Shown: positions 887 to 51,721 of the stretch, piece after piece | How positions within the stretch are numbered: the stretch's first letter is position 1 | Layout of the letters: each line of letters opens with the position of its first letter | IMG/VR virus record: IMGVR_UViG_2541047842_000005 | Reading direction: 5' to 3' (one strand) | DNA: 54,238 nt | Origin: a virus | Lineage: Duplodnaviria > Heunggongvirae > Uroviricota > Caudoviricetes | Translations under genes and position numbers: made by a program | The notes under the pieces: generated by a model | The model's input: the letters and a program-made list of their open reading frames with translations, nothing else | Databases searched by the model: none | Told to the model about the DNA's origin: nothing

Positions 887-900
887 TTGTTTATCCTCAA

Positions 901-1508: not shown

Positions 1509-1702
1509 AATACACCGTTGCTATTTTTCCATTGCGCCCGCGCATACATGATCGCCCATAAAGAAATGAGCCTTGAACTAGCCATATGGTCGTTTTTTAG
1601 TTTTTTCATATCAACGACGACAGGACGATCAGGATCATCGTCGCGCATGTATTCCGCAATCGTGCTCAGGTCTTCAACTGTTAAATCTAATTCCTTATCC
1701 AT
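1505..1702 (-). CDS. hypothetical protein (65 aa)
   Basis: ATG preceded by GAGGTGG; stop overlaps the ninB start (ATGA). Confidence 0.45.
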   Translation of the reverse strand: MDKELDLTVEDLSTIAEYMRDDDPDRPVVVDMKKLKNDHMASSRLISLWAIMYARAQWKNSNGVL

Positions 1703-1711
1703 AACGCCACC

Positions 1712-1918
1712 TCACACAATACGCATTGTGTTTCGTAATTCACCGCGCAGCGCCTGCAGTGCATCACGCATTGGTACAAAAACCCGGTTAAATTTTACGT
1801 GTTTATATTTCCGCATCAGTGGCGGTGTATACACCTTTGCGTCGTATACTTCCCACTGATAATAAACGCGCGTATCGTCAATAAACGTTTCAACTGAATA
1901 AAAGATTACCCGTCTCAT
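1712..1918 (-). CDS. hypothetical protein (68 aa)
   Basis: Compact ORF in the operon; start overlaps the stop of the upstream gene. Confidence 0.45.
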   Translation of the reverse strand: MRRVIFYSVETFIDDTRVYYQWEVYDAKVYTPPLMRKYKHVKFNRVFVPMRDALQALRGELRNTMRIV

Positions 1919-2442
1919 AATTCCAACCCCGTTTCACCGTTAAGTTTTTCGATCTCAAATACTGGTTTATCCGGCAGCAGGCCGTTATTTTTCCGGTATT
2001 CATTCAGGCGGTTGTTAAATTCAAATACGATAGGACTCGAACAACCATAGAAGCGAGCTGATCTAAAAAAGTATTTCCCATCAAATTTATTAACTGTTAA
2101 TAAATTTTCACTGCCTAACATCTTTAAAACCCGACAAATTTTCCTCTGTTTTATTTCGAGTTTTAATTCTTTTTTAACATCCTCAGCAGAAAAATAATCG
2201 CTACTATTCAGAAATAAAGGCATGATTTTTTTTATTGCCATTTCGCGCACTGACTTCAAGCAATATGATAATCGCGGCCCTCCCATTTCCACAGGAATAA
2301 TAGCGCCGTCAGAAACCATATCACGCAAACTATTAACGATCTCGATTTCAGGACCTGGAATAGATTTAATAATTGTTGCTTCACCAGCAACAGTGGCATC
2401 CTGTAAAAATTTCGCTATTTGTGTTTTATAAATGGTTTTCAT
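1915..2442 (-). CDS. hypothetical protein (about 175 aa)
   Basis: ORF track gives 1915-2478 from a GTG; first ATG is at 2442 with GAGG 13 nt upstream; start uncertain. Confidence 0.45.
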   Translation of the reverse strand: MKTIYKTQIAKFLQDATVAGEATIIKSIPGPEIEIVNSLRDMVSDGAIIPVEMGGPRLSYCLKSVREMAIKKIMPLFLNSSDYFSAEDVKKELKLEIKQRKICRVLKMLGSENLLTVNKFDGKYFFRSARFYGCSSPIVFEFNNRLNEYRKNNGLLPDKPVFEIEKLNGETGLEL

Positions 2443-2520
2443 TGTTTCTGGCCTCGATTTAAGCGCGAAAACAGCCACCAGAAAGCGGTAAACTTTCCGG
2501 TAAGCCGTTTCTCAAGTTAA

Positions 2521-3942
2521 TTAAAAAGATGCGTTATTCTGGTTGTTTCGTGGTGAGAATCGGCTTGCAGACGGACGTTGTTGCATTGACTGGATGCAAG
2601 CTGACGCCGCGCGGGCCTGGTCGCATGGTAAGATGTTGCCGTTGTCGTCAAACCGCTGGTAAACAGTCCCCGTTTTCCCGTGACGGTTTTTCGAAACAAT
2701 GATCTCCATATATTCGCGGGCAACAGACTGTTCATCATAGTACCCGTCGCGGTAGACCATGATGATCCGGTCTGCGTCCTGTTCAAGATTACCGGAATCA
2801 CGCAGATCAGAATTGTTCGGGCGCTTGTTCGGTCGTTCCTCAACGCGGCGGGATAATTGCGCCAGTGCCAACACTGGTACGCGCAATTCTTTCGCCATCA
2901 TCTTCAACGACCATGACAATTGCCCTACAGCGAGATCGTGACGTTCGGCCTTAGCCAGCTTCATCAACCCGATGTAGTCAATCATTACCATACCGAGGTT
3001 GGGATGATCCTGTTTCATCCGTTCCGTTGTGGCGCGTATTTCCTCAACCGTTAATTGAGACGCGTCAACAATCCAAACGTCAAGATTAGCAAGTGCGCTC
3101 ATACCCTGACCAACATGCGCCAACCCCTCATCATCAAGTTTTACAGGATTACGCAGGCAGTCGGTTGATAAATTACCAGCGCCAGCTATAGCGCGTTCAG
3201 TCATCTGATCGAGTGACATTTCAAGCGTGAAGAACAAAACGCCAACCCGCTGATCTTTACTGCCAGGGTAAGGGTGCTCAGCAGCAGCGCGGGCAATCGC
3301 CAGCGCCAACGCAGATTTACCAGACCCAGGGCGTCCGGCGAGAAGTACCAAATCAGTAGCGTTAATACCGCCTAACATTTCGTCGAGCGGTTCTATCCCT
3401 GTTTTGATGTTGTCAGAATTGACACCGCATTCCATGCGCTTGCTTAAAACCTCTGTGTATTCCTGTACCGCATCGCGCAACAGAACAGGAATGATCTTGT
3501 CTTTCGTTACCTTTAATTTTGAATACCGGGAATCAAAATCTTTCATCGTCTCTTTGACGACTTCAAGCGTCCCCGTTTCCAGCTTGTAGCGCATATCGTC
3601 GATGAGTTCTAACATCTGCCGCCGCTGGTGCTCTTCACGTAGTAGCTGCGCATAGCCTTTCAGGTTTGCGGCAGAAGGACACGAACGCGCCGTTTGCATT
3701 AGCGGTACAAAGTTTTCATTGCCAATCTCATCGCCAACCAATAACGCGTCGATAAGATTCCTGTTTCTGGCTTGCGCCCGGATAACTTCAAACGCACGTT
3801 TGTAAAGCGGGATCGTGAACACTTCAGGATCCAGAGTGGCGAGAACATCTTGCGCGTTAGGAGTGAGGCCGCCTAACAGCAGCCCGCCGATAACTGACGC
3901 TTCACGTTCCTGCCGTAGTGAGTTTATTTGCTCAGTTACCAT
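2521..3942 (-). CDS. replicative DNA helicase, DnaB family
   Basis: 473 aa; Walker A LAGRPGSGKSALA, then DnaB-type motifs (FTLEMS, MVMIDYIGLM, ALAQLSRRVEERPNKRPNNSDLRDSGNLEQDAD). Confidence 0.9.
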   Translation of the reverse strand: MVTEQINSLRQEREASVIGGLLLGGLTPNAQDVLATLDPEVFTIPLYKRAFEVIRAQARNRNLIDALLVGDEIGNENFVPLMQTARSCPSAANLKGYAQLLREEHQRRQMLELIDDMRYKLETGTLEVVKETMKDFDSRYSKLKVTKDKIIPVLLRDAVQEYTEVLSKRMECGVNSDNIKTGIEPLDEMLGGINATDLVLLAGRPGSGKSALALAIARAAAEHPYPGSKDQRVGVLFFTLEMSLDQMTERAIAGAGNLSTDCLRNPVKLDDEGLAHVGQGMSALANLDVWIVDASQLTVEEIRATTERMKQDHPNLGMVMIDYIGLMKLAKAERHDLAVGQLSWSLKMMAKELRVPVLALAQLSRRVEERPNKRPNNSDLRDSGNLEQDADRIIMVYRDGYYDEQSVAREYMEIIVSKNRHGKTGTVYQRFDDNGNILPCDQARAASACIQSMQQRPSASRFSPRNNQNNASF

Positions 3943-3960
3943 TATGTTATTGCCTCCGGT

Positions 3961-5079
3961 TTACAAAATGGAATATTCAGGGTAATAAACAAAACGCCCG
4001 ATTTCCCCATGATCCGGGCTGTAAATAATCACCGCTGCCATCCGCCGCGACCGCCATCCGCCATTTGTTGAGTAAGCGTCTTTACCCGCTAACGTGCCGT
4101 GATACTCAACAACGCCTAACGATGATTCAATCAGCCGTTGATGATGCCAGTGCCCGCAATGAGCGTAAACCGCCGCAGACTTGCCAAAGTCTTCTCGCCA
4201 GTCAGAGACGCAGGCAGACAACAAATTTTCAGGTTTTTTGATAGTATGACCGTGATGATATGCAAGGAATGTTTTGCCGTACTGTGTGTGGTGGACGATG
4301 GCAGGTGACACATCAACAGTAACGCGCGGTTCGTCTTCGTAAAAAGCCGCCAGCGCCGCACGTAGCCAGATCATTCCTGACTGGTCGTGATTACCTGATA
4401 ACACCTGAATTTCTACATCCTTATGATTCAACAACATCTTACCTACAGCACGCCGGACCGACCGGATCGCCACATAAACAAGTTTTGCGTAGCGTGAATC
4501 GCAATCTAAGACGTGATTACTTGATGGCGTCACTGGTAATAGCCCGTCCGTGTGAAGCACATCACCGCCGAGAAGCAATACAGCTTTTTCAGACGTTGGT
4601 GCAGCGCCTACAGCGTAGTCAAAGAAGTCATTTAACACGCGTTCAGCGATCCCGGTGTCGTAGCTCTCACCGCATTCAGCTTTATGAGCAAGCGCCCCGA
4701 TATGCAGATCGAATACCGGATAAAGGGCCAGGCTTTTTTGGAAATCAATCTCAGGCACTGGCACAGCCTCCGCGCGTGGTATCTCTTCCGTGAAAGCGTC
4801 ACAAGCCGATTGCATTAGCATTTCCATTTCATCGCGGTCACGGGCTGTTTTAATCCAGCGCATAATCACATTGCCATCCTTATCGACGAGCAATGACTCA
4901 CCATTGACGCCAAAACCCGGCGCGCGACGCGTGGATATTAAACCGCGTTTCGCCAGCCGTGCGCCCAGTCGTTCAACGTTGCGTTTTGCCATTCCATATT
5001 CTTCGGCTATTTGCTTGTAAGTTTTCCCATTGTTGTATTCAGCGATTAATTGCTCGTCGCTGATCTTTCTTTGCGACAT
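3961..5079 (-). CDS. HTH domain fused to calcineurin-like metallophosphoesterase
   Basis: 372 aa; N-terminal HTH (YKQIAEEYGMAKRNVERLGARLAKRGLI); phosphoesterase signature DLHIG...GGDVLHTDG...GNHD; sits immediately upstream of the helicase gene. Confidence 0.65.
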   Translation of the reverse strand: MSQRKISDEQLIAEYNNGKTYKQIAEEYGMAKRNVERLGARLAKRGLISTRRAPGFGVNGESLLVDKDGNVIMRWIKTARDRDEMEMLMQSACDAFTEEIPRAEAVPVPEIDFQKSLALYPVFDLHIGALAHKAECGESYDTGIAERVLNDFFDYAVGAAPTSEKAVLLLGGDVLHTDGLLPVTPSSNHVLDCDSRYAKLVYVAIRSVRRAVGKMLLNHKDVEIQVLSGNHDQSGMIWLRAALAAFYEDEPRVTVDVSPAIVHHTQYGKTFLAYHHGHTIKKPENLLSACVSDWREDFGKSAAVYAHCGHWHHQRLIESSLGVVEYHGTLAGKDAYSTNGGWRSRRMAAVIIYSPDHGEIGRFVYYPEYSIL

Positions 5080-5255
5080 AATGTTATTTCCTCCGGTTCA
5101 CTGAATGAGTATTTATTCATAAAAAACTAATTTTTATTAACATGGGTTTCACGGTGGCAAAAAATGCCAGCAGGGTTAATCAACAACTTATGCAAATTGA
5201 AATAACTACTTAATGAATAACTAATCGTACACATTGTGGTTTACATTTTGTATAT

Positions 5256-6179
5256 TCATTGGCAGCAAACAAGCCCTTTATATGCTTCTTCTACCATGTC
5301 GAATACTTCCGGCCTGTAATAGAAAAACTCATTACTGCCATCAAATTTTACAGGAAAGTTAATTTTATAATTGCTGAAATATTTATGCATCATGCTTTCT
5401 AATTCATGGATATTTTCGGTTGGACCTTCTAACGTTTTCACGACACATAAATCAGGGATTCTAACGCCTGATTTATGTGCGCTTTTTAATACCCGATTTC
5501 TTCGCTTGTTCTCATTAACGCTTACGCCGATTTTCATTTGTGTAGGCACTTCAGGATCATCAACCATGATGTAAAGTTTGCCGAAATTGTGTGACAAAAA
5601 ACCGTGTTTCGCACATTTCGGGCAGCCTTGCCCGCTTTTAATAGCATAAGGTCTAGGCGACCACTTATGATCACAAACCTTGCATCGACATAATACTTTT
5701 GTCCTATCGTTTATTATTTCTCCCAATACTTCAATATCATGATTTACCTTAGTGATAGCGGATAAATGTTCTTCGTGTGATAATGTTCGTCTTTGTGCGA
5801 TTTTTAAACCTTTACATTTCGGGCAGCCGCGCCCGTTTTTTAGGTTGTTAGGTTTAGCCGACCATTCGTGATTACAAACTTTGCAGCGGCATAATGCTTT
5901 TGTATCGCCGTTTATTATTTCGCCAATCACTTCGACATCAGAATTAACCTTCTCGATAGCGGCAACCTGTTCTTCGTGTGATAATTTCATCTTTCCGGCG
6001 CATTTCGGGCAGCCGTAACCGCTTTTAAGATTGTAAGGTCTAGCCGACCATTCGTGACTGCAAACCTTGCAGCGGCAGGATACTTTTGTCCTGTTATTGA
6101 CAATTTCCCCCAGCACTTCGACATCATGATTAACCTTAGCGATAGCCGCAACCTGTTCATCATGTGTTAACTTGCGCAT
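5256..6179 (-). CDS. triple zinc-ribbon repeat protein with C-terminal T5orf172/GIY-YIG-like domain
   Basis: 307 aa; three tandem ~56-aa repeats HxEQVAAIxKVNxDVEVxGEIxNxxTKxxCRCKVCxHEWSAxPxNLKxGxGCPKC; C-terminus GKLYIMVDD..KIGVSVNENKRRNR..H..EFFYY fits the T5orf172 pattern; strong SD AAGGAG. Confidence 0.55.
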   Translation of the reverse strand: MRKLTHDEQVAAIAKVNHDVEVLGEIVNNRTKVSCRCKVCSHEWSARPYNLKSGYGCPKCAGKMKLSHEEQVAAIEKVNSDVEVIGEIINGDTKALCRCKVCNHEWSAKPNNLKNGRGCPKCKGLKIAQRRTLSHEEHLSAITKVNHDIEVLGEIINDRTKVLCRCKVCDHKWSPRPYAIKSGQGCPKCAKHGFLSHNFGKLYIMVDDPEVPTQMKIGVSVNENKRRNRVLKSAHKSGVRIPDLCVVKTLEGPTENIHELESMMHKYFSNYKINFPVKFDGSNEFFYYRPEVFDMVEEAYKGLVCCQ

Positions 6180-9637: not shown

Positions 9638-9760
9638 ATGGTTATTCAGGCGCTTCAATTCAAACTGGCAGTAGCGGAAATGCTTCACGATGCCGAAATG
9701 TGGAGCGCCGCGAATAAAGCCTTATACATAGTGTTAACAGCACGGGAGATTAAATGGTGA
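9638..9760 (+). CDS. small hypothetical protein (40 aa)
   Basis: ATG with strong SD GGAGGTG; stop overlaps the erf start; not in the ORF track. Confidence 0.3.
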   Translation: MVIQALQFKLAVAEMLHDAEMWSAANKALYIVLTAREIKW

Positions 9761-10398
9761 AAACAGAGTTACATAAAAAGCTATGGACGATTCAGCAAAC
9801 GCTGAACGCGCCGAAAAATCAGCGTAATAATTTTGGTGGATATAATTACAGGTCGGCGGAGGATATTTTAGAGGCGGTTAAACCACTGCTTCAAAGTATT
9901 ACGCTGACTGTAAGCGATGAAATTGTCCTGATCGGCAATCGCTATTATGTGAAAGCTACGGCGACGCTAAGCGACGGTGAAGACGAAATAGCGGTAACGG
10001 CTTACGCCAGGGAAGAAGAAAGCAAGAAGGGAATGGACGCAAGCCAGCTAACAGGTGCGACATCAAGTTACGCGCGAAAATATGCTTTGAACGGTTTATT
10101 CTGCATTGATGATGCGCGAGATCCTGATACTGACGCATACGCTAAGCAGACAGGCCAGCAGCCTCGCCAGCAGAAAAACCCACCAAAACAACAACCACAG
10201 CAGCAGAAAGCGCCGCCAAATCCTGATGAAGTATTAGCACGTTTCTGTGATGCAGCAGCGAAAGCGCAGGACGCTAACAAGCTGCGTGAAATATTTGGCA
10301 AATGCTGGAAATTACTACCGGAAGGATCGGAACATCGAATCAAGGCAAAAGATGTTTATGACATCCGGGTAGCAGAGCTTAACGGGGAGATGGGTTAA
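9754..10398 (+). CDS. erf: Erf-family single-strand annealing protein
   Basis: 214 aa; LNAPKNQRNNFGGYNYRSAEDILEAVKPLL...IVLIGNRYYVKATAT...GATSSYARKYALNGLF matches the P22 Erf pattern. Confidence 0.85.
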   Translation: MVKTELHKKLWTIQQTLNAPKNQRNNFGGYNYRSAEDILEAVKPLLQSITLTVSDEIVLIGNRYYVKATATLSDGEDEIAVTAYAREEESKKGMDASQLTGATSSYARKYALNGLFCIDDARDPDTDAYAKQTGQQPRQQKNPPKQQPQQQKAPPNPDEVLARFCDAAAKAQDANKLREIFGKCWKLLPEGSEHRIKAKDVYDIRVAELNGEMG

Positions 10399-16547: not shown

Positions 16548-16721
16548 ATGTCTTTTGATGATTACCAATGGCATGACGACTATGAACGAGAGAGCGTCAT
16601 GCGTGCAATGTGCAATGTATGCAGCACAAAGAAAGGAGGCTGTAACGAGTGCAACGAATGCCTAGATCATTGGCTAATGGCCGGACACGCCGAAAGGCTG
16701 AACGAAACAGAGAATCAAAAA
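16548..16721 (+). CDS. small Cys-rich protein (57 aa, zinc-ribbon-like)
   Basis: Strong SD AAAGGAGAGAG; CNVCSTKKGGCNECNEC; overlaps the untrusted upstream extension of the ninG track ORF. Confidence 0.3.
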
Positions 16722-16738
16722 TAATCGGGGTGGTTTTT

Positions 16739-17344
16739 ATGCAGAACCCTAAAAAACCCATAAGACGCCGTTGCAAATGCTGCGGCGTTTTTTTTGAGCC
16801 TAAATATCACAATCAAACGTGGTGCAGCGATGAATGTCTGGAAGAACTGAAGTTTGATCAGCTATGCCGCGATCGTGAAAAGGCTATGAAGGCTATGGAA
16901 CGAAAGAAACACCGTGATAGCCAGCGGGAAGAACGCAACCGGAAGCGGAAGCAGTTAAATCCGCGCAGCTACTGGATTAAACAGGCGCAAAACGTTTTTA
17001 ACGCTTATATACGCGAGCGTGACGCGCGATTGCCGTGCATATCATGCGGGACTTACTACGGTGAGCAATGCGGGTGGGATGCAGGCCATTACAGGACGGT
17101 AGCAGCCGCCGGACACCTTCGCTTCAACGAGGATAATTGTCACAAGCAATGCAGGCACTGCAACCAGACACTAGACGGCAACATCGGAGGGTATCGCCCG
17201 GCGCTGATTCGAAAAATTGGCCTCGCCAGGGTGGTAGCTCTGGAGAACAACAACGAAACTCACAAATGGACGATTGCAGAATGTAAGGAGCTAATAAACA
17301 TCTATCAGGCGAAATTGGACGCCTTAAGGAGAAAGGCAGCATGA
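16739..17344 (+). CDS. ninG: NinG/Rap recombination protein
   Basis: Track ORF 16649-17344; from MQNPKKPIRRRCKCCG (ATG 16739, SD GGGGTGG) it is colinear with lambda NinG (RSYWIKQAQ..FNAYIRERDARLPCISCGT...WDAGHYRT.AAA..LRFNE.N.HKQC..CNQ). Confidence 0.85.
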   Translation: MQNPKKPIRRRCKCCGVFFEPKYHNQTWCSDECLEELKFDQLCRDREKAMKAMERKKHRDSQREERNRKRKQLNPRSYWIKQAQNVFNAYIRERDARLPCISCGTYYGEQCGWDAGHYRTVAAAGHLRFNEDNCHKQCRHCNQTLDGNIGGYRPALIRKIGLARVVALENNNETHKWTIAECKELINIYQAKLDALRRKAA

Positions 17345-37877: not shown

Positions 37878-37889
37878 AAGGTGAATACT

Positions 37890-38588
37890 ATGATCCATGT
37901 TCGTACAGGACAATTTGCTGCCGTGGTGAACGGTAAGCGCTATGAGTTTAATCCTTGCTTTGCTGCGATGGCTAAAATCGGCAACGATAGTGAGCTTGTC
38001 GAATATTTCGCACTTATCCACGGCGGCAAATATCCATCACGATTGCCAGCAGATCCAGACCTACGCAATCGCATTCTGGCGCGGTGTTATGGTGAAATAG
38101 TTCAGACATCAATGCACATCCTGAAATGTTGCTCAGACGACGAAATAGGCCCGTTATTGGGCGAATGCTGGTTTACTCCTTCGGGTAAGTTAAAGTTAAA
38201 GCCCGGATTAATGCCGATCGAGGATATCATCACGCTTGCGCAGCACTGCATGTACCACGGTCTTATTGGTGATGGCCCGGAAGAAGAGTCCGGGGAAATC
38301 CCGGAAGGGGAATATAAGCCGACTTTTAACGTCCTTGAATTCGTCTATTCTGCCGTTGCTCACCTGGGCTTGTCAGAATCGGAAGCATGGAATATGACAA
38401 TGACCGGATATAGGGCCGCTGTACGCGCTAAAACGCCGCCAGACGAAAGAAACGAGAAAAGCAAGCCAAACATTCACATAAATAAACGTGCTTATGACGA
38501 GCAAATGGAGGCCGCTAAAAAGGCACTAGAAAGAATGAAAAATCGTGAGCAAGAAAAGCCCGGTAGATCCGGGCGTTTTGCTAATTGA
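37890..38588 (+). CDS. putative tail assembly chaperone
   Basis: 232 aa from ATG 37890 (SD AAGGTG; track start 37881 is a GTG); position between the major tail and tape measure genes. Confidence 0.4.
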   Translation: MIHVRTGQFAAVVNGKRYEFNPCFAAMAKIGNDSELVEYFALIHGGKYPSRLPADPDLRNRILARCYGEIVQTSMHILKCCSDDEIGPLLGECWFTPSGKLKLKPGLMPIEDIITLAQHCMYHGLIGDGPEEESGEIPEGEYKPTFNVLEFVYSAVAHLGLSESEAWNMTMTGYRAAVRAKTPPDERNEKSKPNIHINKRAYDEQMEAAKKALERMKNREQEKPGRSGRFAN

Positions 38589-38965: not shown

Positions 38966-39625
38966 TTAATTCCAGTTGCAAGCGTTTTTCACTTTGTCGA
39001 TGTGGTTATAAAGACCATCAATGTTAAACACTGCTTTCTCAATGTCGCCAGCTTCCGGCACTACTTCAATGATGAATTGTTTTTCGTTAACCAGTTTTTT
39101 AATCATTGGGATGGCTTTTTTGCCGTCCCATAATCCAAGAGCTTTATAATTAGTTGACCGCCACCACTCAGTAGCTACAGCTTTGTGAACGCCGATCCGG
39201 TAGTTAATATAAGTAGTGTCCCCGGCGTCAGTTACATGGTGTGACCATGCTACGAACATTTTTGTTTTATTACCCTGGCAAGCGATTGTTAATACCGGTT
39301 TATTCTTATCCTGTGCCTTCAGTGTCGGGAAAGCATCAAGACTTCCGCTGAATTGTTCTGCTTTCACAAAAAGGAATACGTTTTTTGCGTCCTGCATATC
39401 ATCTTTTCTTTCAACTACAAGCCACTGTTTACCAGCATTTTCTTTTTCTAACTGTGCATCGTATGCGGCTTGTTTTGCTTGTTGTTCTGCAAGCCATTTA
39501 GCATTTTTCTCTGCTAATGCTTGTTGCTCTTGATTGGTCACTATAGGCGCTTTTTCATTATCCTCATTGCAACCAACCAGACCCAATACCGCCGCAATCA
39601 TTGCCACTTTTGCTAACCGTTTCAT
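38966..39625 (-). CDS. lipoprotein (moron, opposite strand within the tail operon)
   Basis: 219 aa; signal peptide with lipobox LVGC (MKRLAKVAMIAAVLGLVGC); SD GGTGGG upstream. Confidence 0.65.
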   Translation of the reverse strand: MKRLAKVAMIAAVLGLVGCNEDNEKAPIVTNQEQQALAEKNAKWLAEQQAKQAAYDAQLEKENAGKQWLVVERKDDMQDAKNVFLFVKAEQFSGSLDAFPTLKAQDKNKPVLTIACQGNKTKMFVAWSHHVTDAGDTTYINYRIGVHKAVATEWWRSTNYKALGLWDGKKAIPMIKKLVNEKQFIIEVVPEAGDIEKAVFNIDGLYNHIDKVKNACNWN

Positions 39626-39752: not shown

Positions 39753-42095
39753 ATGGCTACCAGTGTAGGTACAATTTATTACGAAGTTGATGCGAAAACT
39801 GGTCAACTTCTCGTTGCACAACGACAGGCAGACCAGGCCTTTGATCGTATAGAGCGCGGCGCAAAACAGGCTGACCGCCAGGTAAACACCCTGAAAACAT
39901 CCATCAAGGCACTGACCAGGGTTATCCATCTGCTAATTGCTGCGGAGGCTGTGCGCCAATTTATGGATATGGCGGAGCAAGCAAAAATGCTTCGCGTAAA
40001 AATCAAAATGCTTACGGGCGATGCGGAGTCCGCCGGACGGGTTTTCGACGGCCTGAAAGCAATATCCAGGGAGACGGGGCAGAGCCTGAAAGATACTGGC
40101 GAATTATGGCAAGGCCTGGCTATCTCACTAAAAAACACCTCCGCTACGGAAGGGCAATTGCTTAACCTGGTTGGCACTATTCAGAAAATGGGTGCATTAG
40201 GCGGCGCGTCAGCGGAACAGATGTCTAACTCAATGCGTCAATTCCGTCAGTCTATCGACGGCGGTGTTCTTCGTGCCGAAGAATTTAACAGCCTGCTTGA
40301 AAATACGCCGACCATCGTACAAACAATGGCCCGCCATATGGGATTATCAATGGGCCAGTTCCGCGCCGAAATGCTGGACGGCAAGATCACGGCTGAAAGG
40401 ATGGTTAACGCAATACAGGCGGCTACGCAGGAAACAAACGATAAGTTTGCTCAGTTGCCGCGCACATCCGGCATGGCTATCAATGAGCTTAAAGTAGAAA
40501 TTATGGGCCTTGTTGAGCAGTTGGATGATCTTTTTGGCGTGTCAGATGGCGTTGTTTCAGCTATCGACTTGATCACGAAAGGCGTTAAAGGGCTTGGCGA
40601 TGGCGCTAAATTCGCTAAAACCTGCTTCGACACACTCAAAACGGCTGGTAGCGAATTTATCGACATGTTTGATGATGTGGCTGTTAAGGCTGGAGAGGTG
40701 GCCGAGAAGATCATCGCAATGGTGACGCCAATCAAGGCACTAATGGATGCCTACAAATGGATGAAGGAGGTCGTAGGAGAGCAAACCGACGAATATAACA
40801 GCAACTACGAGAAGAAATACGGTAAGACCGTTGGCAAGGTCATGCAACTACAGGATGATCTGACCGCAGCAATCCAGGCTACAGAAGAAGCAAGGAAAAA
40901 TGAACAGAATGCCGCCAATGACGGAGCGATTACCGGATTCGACAAGCCAGTAGACAAACCGAAAAAACAGAAAAAAGAGAAGAAATCTGAAGCTGATCGT
41001 CTTGGCGATAAAGGTATAAGCGTTTCTGACCAGTACAACAAAGACGCCGCCGCTATGCGCAAAGCGTTAGAGAGCGGCAAGGCCATTGATGCTGCATTCG
41101 CCCAGGGTAAAATCACTCTCCTTGAGTACCGCGCCGCGCAAAAAGGGATAGGTAAGGAACTAAAGGAAGAATTAGCACAAATTCCGGTAGAGGAATTGCG
41201 CGACAAATGGGAGCAAATAGTAAGCCCGATGGATCAGCTAAAGGGCGAAGTAGACCCTATTCAGCAGGTTCAAAATGAATGGGCCGTCCGTAAGCAAATG
41301 CTTATCGACCTGGGCGTGACGGAAGCGCAACAGAAACAGGAACTGTTAGCCTATGAGCAACAGATCCGCGATCTGAAGTGGGAGCAATGGCAGGCGCAAA
41401 GCGACACAAACAGCCTTATCGGTGATTGCGTTAATGGCCTTAAAGGTGGTATGAGCAATGCACTTGTTGGCCTGTTAAATGGTACTCAATCATTGAGTGA
41501 TGTTTTTGCTAACTTAGGCAGCAATATCCTCGGGAATATCGGTAACAGGCTTTCAGACATAGCTGCAAACTGGATAGCAGATCAGATCATGATGGAAACG
41601 CAAAGCAAAGCGACTCAGGCAAGTACCACGGCGGGCGCGGTAGCGGCGCAAGGCCAGATTGCTGCGGCGGCGGCCCCGGCGGCGGCGGCAACAGCGGCGT
41701 CAACTGGCGGCGCATGGGCGGCGGCTGGTTCTGCGGCACTCACTGCGATCATGTCGCTGGCTACGTCAATTTTTGGCGGCGGTCGCTTTAATGGTGGTAG
41801 CGTCATTGGTGGCAATATGTACCGTGTAGGGGAACACAACAGGCCGGAGCTATTCCAGACATCTAACGGAAATCAATATATGATCCCTGGCGAGAATGGC
41901 AGGGTTATTCCTGGTCGTGACATTGGCGGTGGCGGCGGCATTAGTATGCCTGTCAATATCAACATTCAGACCACAAACGGATTTAGCGACGAGGACAGCC
42001 GCAGACTTGAGCAGACAATGGAACGTGTAGCAATGAAAATGATAACAAGGGAATCACAACGACCAGGCGGAATATTGCAACCTCGCCGCAAATAA
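39753..42095 (+). CDS. tail tape measure protein
   Basis: 780 aa; long coiled-coil regions and a Gly/Ala-rich hydrophobic segment (AAAAAPAAAATAASTGGAWAAAGSAALTAIMSLATSIFGGG) typical of tape measure proteins. Confidence 0.85.
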   Translation: MATSVGTIYYEVDAKTGQLLVAQRQADQAFDRIERGAKQADRQVNTLKTSIKALTRVIHLLIAAEAVRQFMDMAEQAKMLRVKIKMLTGDAESAGRVFDGLKAISRETGQSLKDTGELWQGLAISLKNTSATEGQLLNLVGTIQKMGALGGASAEQMSNSMRQFRQSIDGGVLRAEEFNSLLENTPTIVQTMARHMGLSMGQFRAEMLDGKITAERMVNAIQAATQETNDKFAQLPRTSGMAINELKVEIMGLVEQLDDLFGVSDGVVSAIDLITKGVKGLGDGAKFAKTCFDTLKTAGSEFIDMFDDVAVKAGEVAEKIIAMVTPIKALMDAYKWMKEVVGEQTDEYNSNYEKKYGKTVGKVMQLQDDLTAAIQATEEARKNEQNAANDGAITGFDKPVDKPKKQKKEKKSEADRLGDKGISVSDQYNKDAAAMRKALESGKAIDAAFAQGKITLLEYRAAQKGIGKELKEELAQIPVEELRDKWEQIVSPMDQLKGEVDPIQQVQNEWAVRKQMLIDLGVTEAQQKQELLAYEQQIRDLKWEQWQAQSDTNSLIGDCVNGLKGGMSNALVGLLNGTQSLSDVFANLGSNILGNIGNRLSDIAANWIADQIMMETQSKATQASTTAGAVAAQGQIAAAAAPAAAATAASTGGAWAAAGSAALTAIMSLATSIFGGGRFNGGSVIGGNMYRVGEHNRPELFQTSNGNQYMIPGENGRVIPGRDIGGGGGISMPVNINIQTTNGFSDEDSRRLEQTMERVAMKMITRESQRPGGILQPRRK

Positions 42096-44788: not shown

Positions 44789-45493
44789 ATGCGCAATATT
44801 CCGAGAGAGATGATTATTGATTCCGTCGATGCCGGAGTTGGCGCGGTCATTGACTTATTTGAACTGGACCTTACTCCCCTGGGAGGCGAGGTTATCCGCT
44901 TCCATTCCGGCGCGAACGGCTATTACGGCCAGGTTATCTGGAAGGGAGTAGCTTACAACAGCTACCCGATCGAGGCGACGGGCTTCGAAATGAAAAATGA
45001 GGGTGTTTATTCACGGCCTCAAATGGTTGTAGCCAATATCGGCGGACTCATTACGGGGATGAACAACGATTTTAACGACCTTAGAGGAATGAAGGTTACG
45101 CGCCGCCAGGTGGAGGTGAAATATCTTGACGCCGTTAACTTCCCTAACGGTAATCCAGACGCAGATCCATCTATTGAGGCTGTATCTTTTTACGTCATTG
45201 AAGCAATGAGCGAAGAAACAGCGGATCAGGTGCAGTATGAACTGTCAACGCCAATTGATGCAGATAAAGCTGTCATCCCTGGGCGCACCATCCTTGCTGA
45301 CGTTTGCCAGTGGCAATACAGAGGCGACGGGTGTATGTACGCTGGCGGACCAGTAGCAAACGATAAAGACGAGCCGACAAGCGATCCTAAAGCCGACAGA
45401 TGTAGCCACCGTCTGAGCGGTTGTCGTTTACGTTTCCCGCGTCCAAATCCGTTACCAATTTCCTGTTTCCCCGGTTCAAGTAAGGTGGGCTAA
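44789..45493 (+). CDS. minor tail protein L-like
   Basis: 234 aa; C-terminal Cys cluster (CQWQYRGDGC...CSHRLSGC) as in lambda gpL; order M-L-K-I-J. Confidence 0.75.
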   Translation: MRNIPREMIIDSVDAGVGAVIDLFELDLTPLGGEVIRFHSGANGYYGQVIWKGVAYNSYPIEATGFEMKNEGVYSRPQMVVANIGGLITGMNNDFNDLRGMKVTRRQVEVKYLDAVNFPNGNPDADPSIEAVSFYVIEAMSEETADQVQYELSTPIDADKAVIPGRTILADVCQWQYRGDGCMYAGGPVANDKDEPTSDPKADRCSHRLSGCRLRFPRPNPLPISCFPGSSKVG

Positions 45494-45495
45494 TT

Positions 45496-46227
45496 ATGGC
45501 ACTTGAAGACAAAATGGTTCGCTACGCCGCAGCTCACCCGCGTGAGGAAGTTTGCGGCCTGGTGATAAATAACGAATATTTTTACCCGTGCGCTAACGTA
45601 TCTGAAACGCCATACAACAGCTTCAAAATTTCGCCGGACGATTACATCAAAGCTGACGAATTAGGCGTTATAACCGCCGTTTTTCACTCTCACGTTGATG
45701 ATATTCCGGTATTGTCTGCGCTGGATCGACAACAACAGGTTATTTCCGGCCTCCCGTGGCTTTTATGCTCCGGTGGCAGGGTTAGAAAATTCCGCCCGGT
45801 AGCGCACCTGTTAGGCCGAAAATTTGAGCACGGGAAAACAGACTGCTACGCGCTTTTCCGCGACGCATATCACCTTTGTGGCGTGGATCTACCGGACTTC
45901 GAGCGCCTTGATGGCTGGTGGCTTCGTGGTGAAAACCTGTATTTAAAAAACTTGCCGCGAAACGGGTTTTATCAGGTTGATGCGCAAAGCATCCAGCCAG
46001 GTGACGTAATAATCAGGCAGCCGTTCAAAGGCGCTGACCCATGCCACGCGATGATTTACCTGGGCGATAACACTGTTTTGCATCATGACAATGCCGGACT
46101 GTTAAGCCGCCGCGAGCAAATGCGGCCCGCTTATGTTCGACAAACGCATTCAATATGGAGATCTGATAAATGCTCAAATTTAGATTTACGGGCAATCTTC
46201 GAAGATATTACAGCAAAGTGTGTTTAA
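45496..46227 (+). CDS. tail assembly protein K-like (JAB/MPN plus NlpC/P60 domains)
   Basis: 243 aa; JAB-type HSHVDD motif, NlpC/P60-type Cys in GKTDCYALFRDAY. Confidence 0.75.
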   Translation: MALEDKMVRYAAAHPREEVCGLVINNEYFYPCANVSETPYNSFKISPDDYIKADELGVITAVFHSHVDDIPVLSALDRQQQVISGLPWLLCSGGRVRKFRPVAHLLGRKFEHGKTDCYALFRDAYHLCGVDLPDFERLDGWWLRGENLYLKNLPRNGFYQVDAQSIQPGDVIIRQPFKGADPCHAMIYLGDNTVLHHDNAGLLSRREQMRPAYVRQTHSIWRSDKCSNLDLRAIFEDITAKCV

Positions 46228-46700
46228 ACGTTGAAACGCCAGCGCAAGGGCTTCGCTTATTGACCGCGCAGAATCAGGAATTCAAGAAGGCTTTTTTAAA
46301 TACACCTTTGCGGTTACGGATTGCCGGGAAAGATTATAACGAAAAGACGGCCCCGGCAGCGGTTAATAGTAAATACCCTGACGGAACTACCGTCATTATT
46401 GCGCCAGTAGTTGAAGGCGGTATTGCTGGGATTGGTGTTGTAGGCTGGATCCTGATTGGTGTTTCGGTGGTTAGCGTTGCGTTCTCAATCTTTATGTCCC
46501 GCAACATGAAGATAAAAACATCGGCAGAAAGCGCACAAGATAACACCATAACGAACAACACCTACACCAGCATTGAAAACAAGGTGGGCCAGGGTAGACC
46601 AGTGCCAATACTATTAGGTGAAATGAAAATAGGTTCAAACGTCGGATCGTTAGGCATAGACACAAGCAACAATAGAGACGCCTTAGACGTTGTAAGTTAA
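46170..46700 (+). CDS. tail assembly protein I-like
   Basis: 176 aa; internal hydrophobic segment GIAGIGVVGWILIGVSVVSVAFSIF; position between K and J; start overlaps K. Confidence 0.65.
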   Translation: MLKFRFTGNLRRYYSKVCLNVETPAQGLRLLTAQNQEFKKAFLNTPLRLRIAGKDYNEKTAPAAVNSKYPDGTTVIIAPVVEGGIAGIGVVGWILIGVSVVSVAFSIFMSRNMKIKTSAESAQDNTITNNTYTSIENKVGQGRPVPILLGEMKIGSNVGSLGIDTSNNRDALDVVS

Positions 46701-46713
46701 CAGGAGAAAAACC

Positions 46714-49700
46714 ATGAGTAGCGGCGGCGGCAAAGCCAAAACACCAACATTATTGAACGATAACCTGTATCACAAACAGTTTTATCGTGTTTTAGATATT
46801 CTCAGCGAAGGGCCGATATACGGTCCGGTAAACCAGAAAGCGCCATTGAATGACGTGATGCTTAATGACACTCCTGTTACTGACGCAAACGGGAATACAT
46901 CAATTCCGGGGATTAGTATAGCCTGGCGCAACGGCACGGCTGACCAATCGCCGATTAATGGTTTTAACGCCATTGAGTCAACCGTTATTGTCAACGCAAA
47001 GGTAACTCACGACACACCAATAATCAGGACTGTTTCAGATCCAAACGTTACCCGCGTCAGGTTGAATCTTGGTGTTGATGCTCTCGTTCAGTCAGATGAA
47101 AAGGGCAATCAATATAATACATCCGTCATGTTGATGGTTGATGTTAAACCGTCATCATCTTCTACGTGGTCGCTGATTAAAGACATACACATTGGCCCTG
47201 GTAAACAAAGCGGTGAATACCTGGAAGCTCACATCATTAAAGCGCCGGATGAAAAACCGTTTGATATTCGCGTTCGTCGCATAACACCAGACAGCAACGG
47301 CGATCTATTGCGGAATGATACGCGGTGGAGTAGTTACAGCGAAATAATAGATGATAATCTGTCTTATCCTCATACCGCTGTAGCTGGCGCCGTAATTGAC
47401 CATGATCAGTATACTGATACGCCTACCCGCACCTATCACCTTCGCGGCCTGATTGTTGATGTGCCTGACAACTACAACCCTGAAACGCGCACATATTCAG
47501 GTTTATGGCTTGGTGGATTTAAAAAGGCGTATACCAATAACCCTGCATGGCTTTTCCGGTATCTGGTTAAAAACGAGCGCTTTGGACTTGCTCGACATGC
47601 TGGTTACATTGATGTTGATGATGGCGCTTTGTACGTGCTTTCTCAATACTGCGATCAGTTGGTTGATGATGGCTATGGTGGCCTTGAACCTCGCATGACG
47701 CTTAACGCTTACATTACGGAGCAAATGAGCGCCCGCGACCTACTGGATAACATCGCAGGTATGTTCCGTGGTATCGCGTTATGGGACGGACAACGTCTTA
47801 CCGTGATGATTGATGCGCCACAAGATCCAATCGCCACCATCACAAATGCAAACGTCGTTGATGGCGCGTTTACTCGTTCAAGTATCGCACGCGCAGAATG
47901 CTACAACGCCGTGATCGTATCCTGGACTGACCCTGAAAACGGCTGGGAGCAATCAAAAGAATATGTCGCAGATGATAAACTAATCGCCCGTGATGGTTAT
48001 AACGAAACCACGTTGGAGGCGTTCGGTTGCACTTCACGCGGGCAAGCGCACCGCGCTGGTAAATGGCTGATCGAAACAGCGAAACGCGAGCCGTCAAAAT
48101 TCACATTTAAAATGGCCCGTGACGCCATTCACTTTACGCCGGGGGATATAATCGAGATCCTCGATAATAATCGCGCAGGCGCTCGTTTAGGCGGTCGCAT
48201 CGTGGCGAACAATGGCAGAGCGATCACGGTCGACAAGGTTGATTCTGAATATATCGCGGCTGGCGACACCATCAGCTTACTTGATAGCGATGGTAAATTT
48301 AAAAAACACCAGATCATCGGAGTTAACGGGAACATTATCACCCTTGCAGCCGCCCCGGCGTGGATTCGTAACGGCACTGTTTTTGCTGTATCAACCAACG
48401 CAGCAAAACCCGTTTTATGTCGAATCACCAGTGTAGCAGAAACAGAAAATAACAGCGTATACACCATCGAGGCCGCACAGCATGATCCACATAAGCAGGC
48501 CGTAGTCGATAATGGCACAATCTTCGAGATCAATAACGACACGCTTAATCACTTCCGCGTGCCGAACATTGAAAATCTGAAGGTGTTAAACGTTGGATCT
48601 GAAACGGTTCAATGTCGCGCAACATGGGAAACACAGACGACAACGCGTCGCCTGACCTTTGAGATTCGCGTGTATAACGCCGAAGGCGCTGTAGTTAAAA
48701 GCTACGAAACCACGAATTACAGTTATGATTTTTATGGCATTGATGCTGGCAACTACTCATTAGGCATTCGTGGCAGAAATGACACGGGCATGAAGGGTGC
48801 GGAAAGCATTGTCGATCTGGTTATTGGCGCACCAGCGGCCCCAGTTGGCGTTAATTGGGTTCCCGGTGTATTCCAGGCTACAGTTTACCCGATCAGCAGA
48901 ACAACGCTCACCACTGATACCAGTTACGAGTTTTATTACTCAGGTGAAACGCAGATCACTGATCCGGCATCAATAACCACTAAAGCACAATATACCGGGC
49001 GTGGTCATCAGTGGACGTTTGGCGGCATGAATACAGGTCACACATATTACGTTTATGTGCGCGCGCGTAACGCTTTTGGTGTGTCTGACTTTGTGGAAGC
49101 GTCAGGTAAGCCAACAGAAAACTTTGATGAAATTACCGATTACGTCACCAAAGACGTAATGAATTCCAAACAATTTAAAGAAATGGTTGGTGACATTAAA
49201 GATCTAGGCGACCGCACTGATCTTATCGAAAGCGCTACGAATGACCTTAAAACTGCTACTGACAACCTCAAAACTGCAACTGATAATCTGACCAACATAA
49301 CTGACGATTTAAGGACTGAAACTGACAACCTAACCATAGAAACAGGATCAATAAAAGCTGATACTGATACGCTCAAAAAAGAAACGGAAGATCTTTATAA
49401 AAAAGTTAAGGAAAACGCCGATGATATTGGACAGCATGAGTCGAGAATCGACTCGCTGGAGGTGTCTAGCGAAAAAGTTGGCAGCGAACTGGCGCAAGCA
49501 AAAGCAAGTCTGCAAAACGCCTCACTTGCTCTTATTAATAACTCGCTTGCACAGACTAACACTCGCGTAACTCTTACCGCTCAGTACAAGAAAGGCAGGA
49601 CAGAGACGAAAGCGGAAATTGACCGCATTGACAACGTTATCGCTGAAGAGAAAAAAGCGACAGCGGAATCACTGGAAACCATCACGGCAGAAATGAATGT

Positions 49701-51684
49701 GATGGACACAAACCTTAAAGGTCAGATCTCTAATGTGCAACGCGCAGTAGCTGACGAGGCCAGCGCCCGCGCTGAAGCTATTAACGGTGTAAATGCCTCA
49801 ATAAGCAATCTTGACAAGAAAACTGACGCCAGCGTAAACCGTCTTGATCAGGCAATTGCAGACGAAACAAGTGCGCGTACTCAGGCTATCAGCGACGTGA
49901 ACGCAAGTATCTCAACACTTGACAAGAAAACTGACGCCAGCGTTAAGCGCCTCGATAATGCAATATCAGATGAAACGCAGGCAAGAAGCGACGCAATAAC
50001 AGTGGTTAAAGCTGATTTAACAACGCTTGAAAATAACACAAATGCCAGTGTTAGCCGTCTTGATCAAGCTATCGCTGATGAATCAAGCGCACGTGCTCAG
50101 GCGATATCAGGTATCAGCGCGACGCTTGGCGGCGTTAAAAGTGAGGTTGATAAAAACAGCGACGAGATAGATCAGGCGAAAGCAAGTCTGCAAAACGCAT
50201 CTCTGGCGCTTATTAATAACTCAATGGCGCAAAGCAAGATGAGCACTGTTATTGAGGCGAAATACAGGAAAGGACAAACAAAAACAAAAGCGGAAATAGC
50301 AAGGGTAGACACAGCAATCGCAGATGAGGCGAGCGCACGCGCAGAAGCTATTAGCAACGTTAACGCCAGCGTCAGTAGTCTTGAAAGCAAAACCGACGCG
50401 AGCGTTTCCCGTCTTGATAAAGCAATCGCAGATGAGGCGAGCGCACGCGCAGAAGCTATTAGCGGGGTTAATGCGTCAATTTCCACGCTCGATAGCAAGG
50501 TGACAAGCAACGTAACCAGGATGGATAAAGCGATCGCAGATGAGAAGAATGCACGCACTGACGCAATCAGCAGCCTTAACTCATCGCTTACCAGTACGAT
50601 TAATTCGAAAGTATCCGAAGTGTCAACTGCACTTTCTACGCATGAAACATCAAGCGCGGAAAAATTTGGCCAGATCTCGGCATCTTTCGACGATGTAAAC
50701 TCAAGCATCACGGAATGGTCACAGGCTATGGCAACGGCAGACGAGGCATTGTCAACCAGAATCGACCAGTTGAAAGTAACTATTAACGGAAACACAACGG
50801 CGATAGAAACGACATCAAAAGCACTGACTGACTTCAAAGGTAACGTTGATGCGTCATATTCAATTAAGATTGCCACTGATAAAAACGGTATGAAATACGC
50901 TACAGGAATGTCGCTCGGCCTTACTGGTAGCGGGACTAACGTTCAATCGCAGTGTATTTTCCTCGTTGACCGTTTCGTGCTTATGACTGCGGCAGGTGGC
51001 TCCTATCAGACCCCGTTCTATGTTACTAACGGTGCTTGCTACATCCGTGATGCGTGGATCAGAGACGCATCAATCACTACCGCGAAGATTGCGCAGCAAA
51101 TTCAGTCAACCAACTATAAAGCTGGTTCGGCTGGCTGGATGCTAAATAAAAACGGCAATGCGGAGTTCAACAACGTCACTGTACGCGGTACGGTGTACGC
51201 AACATCTGGTAAATTCACTGGTGAGATTCAGGCCACAAGCGGGAAGTTTAAAGGTACAGTAGAGGCAAAGTCATTTGTCGGTGACGTTGCTAACATGGGG
51301 GTTGGTCCAGATCGAGTGCTTGGGCATAACGGAAGTTATAGCGCAACCATCACATATAAAGACAGCACGGATAATGCATTGACGAAATCAGTTATGCTTA
51401 TGGCGACTATTTCATTAATGTCTGGTGAATATAGATCCACTTATAACGTAACGTTTAGTTGCGGAGATAAAAACAAAACAATTTCATATTACGTGCCTTA
51501 TGGTGGATGCACATTAACAGTGCAATGCGCTTTTTCTGGTTTAAAAGCATCAGATATTATCGGGAAAATATATTGTCCTCAAACATCATCATCTGAAGGA
51601 TACGCATATTGTACCGCGTTGTATTCTCCAACAATGATAGTAGCAAGAGGCACCGGATCATTTAGAACATCAACGACAGCATAA
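46714..51684 (+). CDS. host specificity protein J-like central tail fibre with extended repeat-rich C-terminal region
   Basis: 1656 aa; N-terminal two-thirds J-like; residues about 900-1300 are tandem coiled-coil repeats (AIADEASARAEAISGVNASISTLDSKTDASVSRLD); distinct C-terminal domain. Confidence 0.8.
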   Translation: MSSGGGKAKTPTLLNDNLYHKQFYRVLDILSEGPIYGPVNQKAPLNDVMLNDTPVTDANGNTSIPGISIAWRNGTADQSPINGFNAIESTVIVNAKVTHDTPIIRTVSDPNVTRVRLNLGVDALVQSDEKGNQYNTSVMLMVDVKPSSSSTWSLIKDIHIGPGKQSGEYLEAHIIKAPDEKPFDIRVRRITPDSNGDLLRNDTRWSSYSEIIDDNLSYPHTAVAGAVIDHDQYTDTPTRTYHLRGLIVDVPDNYNPETRTYSGLWLGGFKKAYTNNPAWLFRYLVKNERFGLARHAGYIDVDDGALYVLSQYCDQLVDDGYGGLEPRMTLNAYITEQMSARDLLDNIAGMFRGIALWDGQRLTVMIDAPQDPIATITNANVVDGAFTRSSIARAECYNAVIVSWTDPENGWEQSKEYVADDKLIARDGYNETTLEAFGCTSRGQAHRAGKWLIETAKREPSKFTFKMARDAIHFTPGDIIEILDNNRAGARLGGRIVANNGRAITVDKVDSEYIAAGDTISLLDSDGKFKKHQIIGVNGNIITLAAAPAWIRNGTVFAVSTNAAKPVLCRITSVAETENNSVYTIEAAQHDPHKQAVVDNGTIFEINNDTLNHFRVPNIENLKVLNVGSETVQCRATWETQTTTRRLTFEIRVYNAEGAVVKSYETTNYSYDFYGIDAGNYSLGIRGRNDTGMKGAESIVDLVIGAPAAPVGVNWVPGVFQATVYPISRTTLTTDTSYEFYYSGETQITDPASITTKAQYTGRGHQWTFGGMNTGHTYYVYVRARNAFGVSDFVEASGKPTENFDEITDYVTKDVMNSKQFKEMVGDIKDLGDRTDLIESATNDLKTATDNLKTATDNLTNITDDLRTETDNLTIETGSIKADTDTLKKETEDLYKKVKENADDIGQHESRIDSLEVSSEKVGSELAQAKASLQNASLALINNSLAQTNTRVTLTAQYKKGRTETKAEIDRIDNVIAEEKKATAESLETITAEMNVMDTNLKGQISNVQRAVADEASARAEAINGVNASISNLDKKTDASVNRLDQAIADETSARTQAISDVNASISTLDKKTDASVKRLDNAISDETQARSDAITVVKADLTTLENNTNASVSRLDQAIADESSARAQAISGISATLGGVKSEVDKNSDEIDQAKASLQNASLALINNSMAQSKMSTVIEAKYRKGQTKTKAEIARVDTAIADEASARAEAISNVNASVSSLESKTDASVSRLDKAIADEASARAEAISGVNASISTLDSKVTSNVTRMDKAIADEKNARTDAISSLNSSLTSTINSKVSEVSTALSTHETSSAEKFGQISASFDDVNSSITEWSQAMATADEALSTRIDQLKVTINGNTTAIETTSKALTDFKGNVDASYSIKIATDKNGMKYATGMSLGLTGSGTNVQSQCIFLVDRFVLMTAAGGSYQTPFYVTNGACYIRDAWIRDASITTAKIAQQIQSTNYKAGSAGWMLNKNGNAEFNNVTVRGTVYATSGKFTGEIQATSGKFKGTVEAKSFVGDVANMGVGPDRVLGHNGSYSATITYKDSTDNALTKSVMLMATISLMSGEYRSTYNVTFSCGDKNKTISYYVPYGGCTLTVQCAFSGLKASDIIGKIYCPQTSSSEGYAYCTALYSPTMIVARGTGSFRTSTTA

Positions 51685-51710
51685 AAAACGGGGCATAAGC
51701 CCCGTTTTTT
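51685..51710. terminator. bidirectional rho-independent terminator
   Basis: AAAAA-CGGGGC-ATAA-GCCCCG-TTTTTT, perfectly symmetric. Confidence 0.75.
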
Positions 51711-51721
51711 ATGCATTGTTT

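Follow-up and report, generated by a model that had tools for sequence, protein, structure and literature searches.

Size-variable fibers built from repeats include streptococcal M protein, the stalks of trimeric autotransporters, the adenovirus fiber shaft, phage tape measure proteins, and T4 gp37. In these proteins, in-frame repeats encode a fibrous module, and homologous recombination yields alleles that differ by whole units. Here, we describe a J-like central tail fiber (tip attachment) gene, a single open reading frame (ORF) of 1656 aa at 46714–51684 on the + strand of the Caudoviricetes record IMGVR_UViG_2541047842_000005, the 54,238-nucleotide stretch that we call the window throughout. 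The proteins listed above are distinct from J and adopt other folds. The J gene likely encodes a repeat-built, expanded helical shaft whose length changes through recombination or slippage among the DNA repeats that encode it.

The closest described systems are themselves J-like fibers. In gpJ of phage lambda, the alpha-helical shaft (AHS, residues 809–861) lies between FNIII-2 and the beta-prism and forms a three-helix bundle of about 50 residues (Ge & Wang 2024, PMC11101478). J proteins from 'mEpimmI' phages, a group described in 2025 to which mEp013, mEp515, mEp021, mEp010, mEp044, mEp554, and MagusPhagus belong, are of unequal size and carry 'repeats of different length (positions 950-1,475)', and receptor use among them follows the C-terminus; that study does not resolve 36-aa or 7-aa units, crossover junctions, or a series of unit numbers (PMC11893012). 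The central fiber of F-type pyocins is likewise J-like, carries a long trimeric coiled coil ahead of a beta-prism seed, and aligns in sequence to the window protein. In the F7 pyocin fiber, a 163-residue coiled coil refolds to a beta-prism on receptor binding and powers penetration (He et al. 2026 preprint, PMC12874032), whereas the shafts considered here comprise 2 to 12 tandem units; a word search of the preprint text returned no mention of repeats (PMC12874032). Repeats and size differences in mEpimmI J proteins are already known, and repeat-driven variation in fiber length is familiar. What is new is the unit anatomy, its placement in the shaft, the exact junctions, a set of alleles that carry 6, 7, 8, or 9 units, and a possible link to fold switching.

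An internal shaft in a lambda-type central fiber

At 1656 aa, the window protein is 524 residues longer than lambda J (1132 aa), in agreement with the surplus of about 500 residues given in a preliminary description of the window that was made from sequence alone. Residues 1–850 align to lambda J 1–857 with 38% identity, and residues 1360–1525 align to lambda J 841–997. Because both flanks align, the approximately 510 extra residues are internal, and the term 'C-terminal extension' used in the preliminary description is not appropriate: the beta-prism and the receptor-binding domain remain distal to the added segment. This segment (aa about 836–1360) shares with the lambda AHS its homologous flanks and its position between FNIII-2 and the beta-prism with the receptor-binding domain, and by these features it appears to be the much enlarged counterpart of that shaft. 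It differs from the lambda shaft in its length of about 525 residues, in its heptad and 36-aa repeats, and in being polymorphic in length; lambda J has no match to the 36-aa unit. The helical shaft closes with a conserved, non-repeated end (50632–50799, + strand, aa 1307–1362) that aligns to the F2-pyocin fiber and to PDB entry 9l9p. It is followed by the Phage_Tail_Tip (PF09327) beta-prism or central straight fiber domain (50800–51213, +, aa 1363–1500) and by a lineage-specific C-terminal receptor-binding region (51214–51681, +, aa 1501–1656).

The domain content and genomic setting of the gene are those of a J protein. Pfam places FNIII-A_GpJ at aa 88–214, Phage-tail_3 at aa 335–492, Ig_J at aa 609–707, Ig_J_second at aa 709–811, and PF09327 at aa 1363–1500 (E 3e-40), and lambda J in the PDB matches aa 1–851 at E 3e-186. 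No Pfam family covers the shaft between aa 812 and 1362, where only sub-threshold coiled-coil noise was found. Directly 5' of J (44789–46700) are homologs of L, K, and I, which complete the gene order L-K-I-J: a Phage_tail_L homolog (44789–45493) and a K-like gene with NlpC/P60 and JAB domains (45496–46227), and an I-like ORF (46170–46700). These domains and upstream genes together lead us to regard 46714–51684 as the J-type central tail fiber gene of a siphovirus-type prophage. Its hub, FNIII, and Ig homology, the gene order, and the distal beta-prism all indicate that its product is lambda gpJ-like.

Structure prediction agrees with a helical shaft. AlphaFold2 in monomer mode, run without an alignment, predicts helices throughout aa 902–1372 at a predicted local distance difference test score (pLDDT) of 73, with short breaks, two of which fall within the header modules described below. 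With an alignment, the prediction is a single continuous helix from aa 1200 to 1352 at pLDDT 92–98, followed by a beta domain for which the top Foldseek matches in the PDB are lambda central tail fiber structures. This alignment was shallow, at 54 rows, and homologous protein searches gave almost only short partial proteins. The 525-residue shaft contains no proline. Its hydrophobicity repeats every 3.54 residues along the heptad array and every 3.60 residues along the unit blocks, and no such peak occurs in the flanking domains. A period of 36/10 corresponds to a mix of heptads and hendecads and therefore suggests a nearly straight helical bundle. The shaft is most likely a parallel three-helix bundle, with the trimer assigned by analogy to lambda gpJ and the F-pyocin fiber.

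Repeat anatomy of the shaft

The most proximal part of the shaft is an array of eight 21-nt (7-aa) TDNLKTA-type repeats (49234–49401, +, aa 841–896), which lies 5' of the interval that the preliminary description had marked as repetitive. A repeat search further identified seven units of 108 nt (36 aa), all in register, with starts at 49738, 49846, 49954, 50062, 50308, 50416, and 50524. Four of the seven form block 1 (49738–50169, +, aa 1009–1152), and the other three form the polymorphic block 2 (50308–50631, +, aa 1199–1306). Units were also detected with a hidden Markov model (HMM) built from the window's own seven units. A match to these seven is built into the model, and the information lies in how it scores other phages. 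Comparison of 45 distinct units found in relatives gives the consensus DKAIADETSARTEAISGVNASISTLESKTDASVSRL, running from Asp1 to Leu36 with Lys or Gln at position 2, Glu or Gln at position 13, and Glu or Asp at position 26. Glu7 and Ala10 are invariant in this set, and Asp1, Ile4, Arg11, and Ala14 are nearly so. The coiled-coil module motif proposed in the preliminary description agrees with this consensus, and the units are predicted to be helical. Because nucleotide identity between most window units is merely 43–69%, Tandem Repeats Finder missed the 108-nt array and reported only the 21-nt one.

Each unit block is preceded by a header. Header module 1 (49402–49737, +, aa 897–1008) holds one degenerate 36-aa unit (aa 973–1008) and the first copy of a dispersed repeat (49495–49553, +, aa 929–944), and header module 2 (50170–50307, +, aa 1153–1198) holds the second copy (50173–50231, +, aa 1155–1170). 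Both copies encode AKASLQNASLALINNS and lie 678 nt apart. The pair of about 60 bp in the preliminary description is therefore present, although 'near-identical' is too strong a term for it: 49 of 59 nt are the same (83%; blastn, 88% over 50 nt, E 2e-11), and no exact run is longer than a 20-nt core (49501–49520 = 50179–50198). Since one header copy stands before each block, the segment can be described as a higher-order duplication of header plus units with a period of 226 aa.

Three exact repeats appear when runs of at least 17 nt are listed: the header core, a 26-nt repeat in block 1 (49810–49835 = 49918–49943, 108-nt spacing), and a 43-nt repeat in block 2. The two copies of the last, at 50313–50355 in unit 5 and 50421–50463 in unit 6 (both +), are also spaced by 108 nt and form the crossover site discussed below. 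When the same protein was re-encoded by synonymous-codon resampling (n = 200), the longest exact repeat reached a maximum of 26 nt. The real 43-nt tract exceeds all of these resamplings, which argues for a recent duplication or gene conversion rather than protein constraint alone. All repeats named in the preliminary description were found, and they are above chance.

Alleles that differ by whole units

An Escherichia coli CB7286 prophage carries a gene with 100% identity to the window J. The J genes of mEp013, mEp515, mEp021, mEp010, mEp044, mEp554, and MagusPhagus are 84–90% identical in nucleotide sequence over aligned portions that cover only 66–80% of the gene. The genes flanking J are the same in the mEp relatives, and this synteny, along with the J-gene similarity, suggests that the window J belongs with the mEpimmI group. 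In mEp515 and mEp021 (L002 and L003, 2437–3003), I and J are separated by an inserted HNH endonuclease gene, which is found neither in the window nor in the other relatives.

We compared J alleles across about 45 relatives. Among eight phage genes scored with the unit HMM, MagusPhagus and mEp515 have 4 units each, mEp013 has 3 and a partial one, the window has 4+3, mEp010 has 4+5, and mEp021, mEp044, and mEp554 have 7+5. The range is 2 to 12 units in 40 IMG/VR loci, in which complete J proteins measure 1350 to 1828 aa. The heptad segment also varies among relatives (61, 68, 82, 89, or 103 aa), always in steps of whole heptads. In near-identical genes, block 2 alone contains 2, 3, 4, or 5 units. 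Length among relatives thus differs by whole units. The length of the downstream fiber gene (449–1160 aa in relatives) does not track that of J, and mEp021 and mEp515 have one and the same 449-aa protein.

The near-identical alleles locate the exchange precisely. Allele L023 lacks 108 nt and otherwise shows 0 mismatches to the window across 4863 nt, with alignment blocks that overlap by precisely the 43-nt repeat; L022 has the identical deletion. One additional unit (+108 nt) is present in GN04592 and L013, and two (+216 nt) are present in LP-26-E1-261, all at 99.9–100% identity to the window J. The deleted alleles carry a chimera of the head of unit 5 and the tail of unit 6, and the expanded alleles carry the reciprocal chimera, with the head of unit 6 and the tail of unit 5 (DKAIADEASARAEAIS joined to NVNASVSSLESKTDASVSRL). 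The junctions of the −108, +108, and +216 alleles all fall within the 43-nt repeat. The deleted and expanded alleles are the two products expected of unequal exchange in this tract. In the expanded alleles, exact repeats are 151 nt or longer. The 7-unit form is also found in a lineage that is 6% diverged from the window (GN05505, L014, and L019) and is therefore probably ancestral.

A larger event separates two of the mEp phages. The mEp515 J gene is 99.8% identical to nt 1–3447 and 97.8% identical to nt 4283–5184 of the mEp021 J gene. These alignments have 167 nt in common, and mEp515 J is shorter by 1002 nt in frame (334 aa). Where the two mEp021 copies can be told apart, mEp515 has 56 consecutive bases of the upstream copy followed by 43 of the downstream copy, so that one clean crossover separates the two genes.

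These natural alleles, with −1, +1, and +2 units and junctions inside repeats, bear out the suggestion in the preliminary description that the repeats could mediate in-frame deletion or expansion. The header pair, which had been stressed there, shows no such product: its exact core is only 20 nt, and no header–header recombinant (49495/50173) was found among about 45 alleles, in which all single-header alleles keep the header-1 type after the shared motif. The active substrates are the 36-aa units instead. With exact in-frame DNA repeats of 43 and 26 nt and whole-unit alleles, the J gene has the sequence features of a size-variable repeat fiber.

Proposed mechanism of length change

We propose that the shaft, as a parallel three-helix bundle, would hold the beta-prism and receptor-binding domain off the tail tip. 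It is assembled from the proximal 7-residue array and from 36-residue units in one or two blocks, each with a header before it. Because each protein unit is also a repeat in the DNA, whole units can be lost or gained in frame, by unequal homologous recombination or by slippage during replication. The resulting length quanta are 36 residues, about 5.3 nm per unit if the helix is straight, and 7 residues. At 0.148 nm per residue, the 334 aa by which mEp021 and mEp515 differ would amount to some 49 nm of straight helical shaft. In the window, the substrate in use is the 43-nt exact repeat common to units 5 and 6, and the −108-nt alleles on the one hand and the +108- and +216-nt alleles on the other represent both reciprocal products of a crossover in this repeat. 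The same arrays could serve as junctions at which the distal shaft and receptor-binding part are swapped between phages. The pathway might be host RecA or, by analogy, phage Erf, NinB, or NinG acting on short homologies. Three phage recombination genes of these types are present in the window, encoding an ERF-family annealing protein (9754–10398, +), NinB (1077–1508, −), and NinG (16649–17344, +), and they may be relevant to recombination between short repeats. As to a diversity-generating retroelement or another programmed mechanism, a non-exhaustive scan of 26 window ORFs revealed no reverse transcriptase.

Several points weigh against this proposal. Most unit pairs of the window, at the identities given above, share exact runs of no more than 12 nt, and the plausible recombination substrates that the window now contains number only two or three sites. 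The length variants are known here from comparison between genomes. The −1 alleles were found in draft assemblies of isolates, in which misresolution of the 43-nt repeat is conceivable; the same project series also assembled 7-unit alleles correctly. We infer, rather than observe, the trimeric state and the length of the fiber; the tails of mEpimmI phages measure about 130 nm, and the paper gives no fiber measurements (PMC11893012). Finally, any fitness effect or phenotype of shaft length is a supposition.

Distal exchange and receptor type

The arrays also look like sites at which phages exchange distal modules, as a few cases suggest. GN05505 is approximately 11% diverged from the window up to position 49273, within the heptad array, and then shows 0 mismatches in 2411 nt. 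The last differences from the window lie at 50467 in L014 and at 50391 in L019, both in unit block 2. FAH combines an mEp013-like short shaft with a C-terminal stretch of 350 aa that is 99% identical to the window's.

Adenovirus fiber shaft length and T4 gp37 domain duplications influence host use, and by analogy the length of the J shaft might alter which receptor or host is used. A longer shaft could, for instance, reach outer-membrane proteins past O-antigen or capsule. We nevertheless consider such an effect on receptor choice improbable. The J protein of mEp021 is present in virions by mass spectrometry, and mEp021 and mEp515 need OmpA, whereas other mEp relatives use LamB (PMC11893012). 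Of these, mEp021 and mEp515 have 12 and 4 units, respectively, and the LamB users have from 3.6 to 12, so that the same receptor is used across shaft lengths; receptor type therefore follows the C-terminal cluster rather than length. Similarly, shafts of five lengths (3.6, 6, 7, 8, and 9 units) carry the same final 160 aa as the window protein, which places one identical receptor-binding domain on all of them. The window protein's C-terminal region is 31–37% identical to the termini of LamB-using mEp phages and has no match to those of the OmpA users. Of the fiber-length or receptor-range variation envisaged in the preliminary description, the first part holds, since length varies by unit; the second is not supported, as receptor type tracks the C-terminal domain and not the number of units.

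Alternative explanations

It could be argued that the repeats reflect coiled-coil periodicity only and have no recombinational role, with the length variants arising as assembly errors. Most units are indeed strongly diverged at synonymous sites, and many database copies are fragments that end inside the array, an indication that assemblers struggle there. This explanation is nonetheless very improbable in light of the expanded alleles, because collapse of a repeat in assembly cannot generate extra perfect units, and the +1 allele occurs in two genomes with different single-nucleotide polymorphisms while the +2 allele comes from a chromosome-level assembly. The reciprocal products, moreover, have one common junction; mEp021 and mEp515, linked by a single clean crossover, are independently sequenced isolates; and the 43-nt identity is more than the protein sequence demands. 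The length of the antisense ORF of 234 aa that overlaps the repeats (50172–50876, −), 234 codons within a 771-nt stop-free stretch, might be taken to indicate a real overlapping gene. Stops in the antisense frame need Tyr codons, or Gln or His codons that follow a T-ending codon, and this frame stays open because the shaft has few codons for Tyr, His, and Gln. When genes for the same J protein were codon-resampled, stop-free runs in the antisense frame averaged 561 nt (sd 133). The run reached at least 771 nt in 7.9% of the resampled genes, and 68% of them had their longest run begin in the same section of the gene (nt 3000–4200). The frame is closed in mEp013, mEp515, mEp021, mEp010, MagusPhagus, and FAH, and the predicted product is a low-complexity sequence with abundant Leu, Ser, and Ala. 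That the ORF is a gene is thus exceedingly unlikely, and we agree with the preliminary description that it is spurious, an artefact of composition.

A further reading concerns shaft function only and is compatible with length change by recombination: the 36-aa units could be modules of a metastable coiled coil that refolds to a beta-prism on receptor binding, with the number of units setting the stroke and stored energy. The strand motif reported for the pyocin switch is SxSxxMxxLxS with Asp/Glu-Arg pairs at ±4, and a switch is predicted in many siphophage fibers (PMC12874032). Searched in either orientation, this motif has 29 matches in the shaft (525 aa) and 5 in the remaining 1131 aa, and 1000 composition shuffles of the shaft give 7.6 ± 2.7 matches and never more than 20. 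In each unit, a forward match (positions 10–20) alternates with a reverse match (from position 31 through position 5 of the unit that follows) at a period of 36, and the invariant Glu7 with the nearly invariant Arg11, at i and i+4, is consistent with the published pairing. Residues 912–1185 of the F2-pyocin fiber (PDB 25vf) align to J aa 1205–1482 at E 1e-28. In lambda, shaft residues 841–861 turn into beta strands upon LamB binding (PMC11101478). The predicted helices, their periodicity, the absence of proline, and the beta domain directly after would together describe a long coiled coil before a beta-prism seed. On the other hand, the motif is loose and rich in small residues, its matches are copies of one ancestral unit and hence non-independent, and a third, overlapping reverse match in each unit blurs the strand assignment. 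The F2-pyocin alignment is driven mostly by the beta domain, AlphaFold2 gave helix only in a monomer mode that cannot reveal a trimeric prism, and a switch of 525 residues would be three times bigger than any yet observed. We therefore regard refolding of the units as possible but rather unlikely, and it is with the same reserve that we raise the idea of mEpimmI fibers as long 'collapsible' shafts of up to about 12 units.

Other features of the window

A scan for promoters and terminators inside J showed no excess over shuffled sequence, and only one hairpin stood out. This terminator, with a perfect 16-bp stem and a 4-nt loop (51679–51714), overlaps the stop codon of J and is common to J and a small convergent gene immediately 3' of it (51722–52024, −). 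The latter encodes a secreted protein (MKKLIVACILSALSFGAFA, then S) with two C-terminal Cys residues. Its position corresponds to that of the lipoprotein-type superinfection-exclusion genes of mEpimmI phages (PMC11893012), and its lipobox-like IVAC is too near the N-terminus to convince. Farther downstream, 52165–53961 (+) encodes a fiber-like protein of 598 aa that is annotated in RefSeq as a 'phage head spike fiber domain-containing protein' and has a weak Laminin_G_3 match.

Within the tail cluster, a 219-aa ORF on the opposite strand (38966–39625, −) lies between the major tail gene (37881–38588) and the tape measure gene (39753–42095). It has a Pfam VasI (type VI secretion system) domain at E 1e-15 and looks like a moron. 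Adjoining the replication genes (DnaB-like helicase, 2521–3942), 5256–6179 (−) encodes a 307-aa protein with three DUF4379/CapR treble-clef zinc-finger repeats and a T5orf172/MUG113 domain. No tRNAs were found in the window.

In the databases, the distal part of J is mostly represented by partial proteins at contig ends, and many J copies begin or end inside the array. One set, P0004 (43 members), starts at J aa 1220, just past the 43-nt repeat. Short-read assemblies thus often break in the array, and unit numbers in draft genomes need care. Outside the group, residues 878–978 of PDB 9l9p_S, a J-like 'putative tail fiber protein', contain tandem repeats of approximately 33 residues (IATETEALSREIDQLKAQIGDDIQASLTDIREV) with an IADET.AR-type start. 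Repeat-built shafts may be common in J-like fibers beyond the mEpimmI phages.

Implications

The window J gene and its alleles offer a concrete case in which the central fiber of a siphophage changes length: whole helical modules of 36 or 7 residues are gained or lost through recombination at short stretches of identical DNA, and the receptor-binding tip stays intact. One practical consequence is that the array breaks short-read assemblies and leaves many fragmentary copies of J in the databases. If the units do refold on receptor binding, the stroke would draw the tail tip tens of nanometers toward the membrane, stroke and stored energy alike would be adjusted by recombination one unit at a time, and the 6-, 7-, 8-, and 9-unit alleles, together with mEp515 and mEp021 (4 versus 12 units), would constitute a natural titration of the fold switch. 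Independently of any refolding, shaft length could matter for adsorption through O-antigen or capsule, and the otherwise isogenic alleles of 6 to 9 units and the mEp021/mEp515 pair provide natural material with which the effects of shaft length may be approached.

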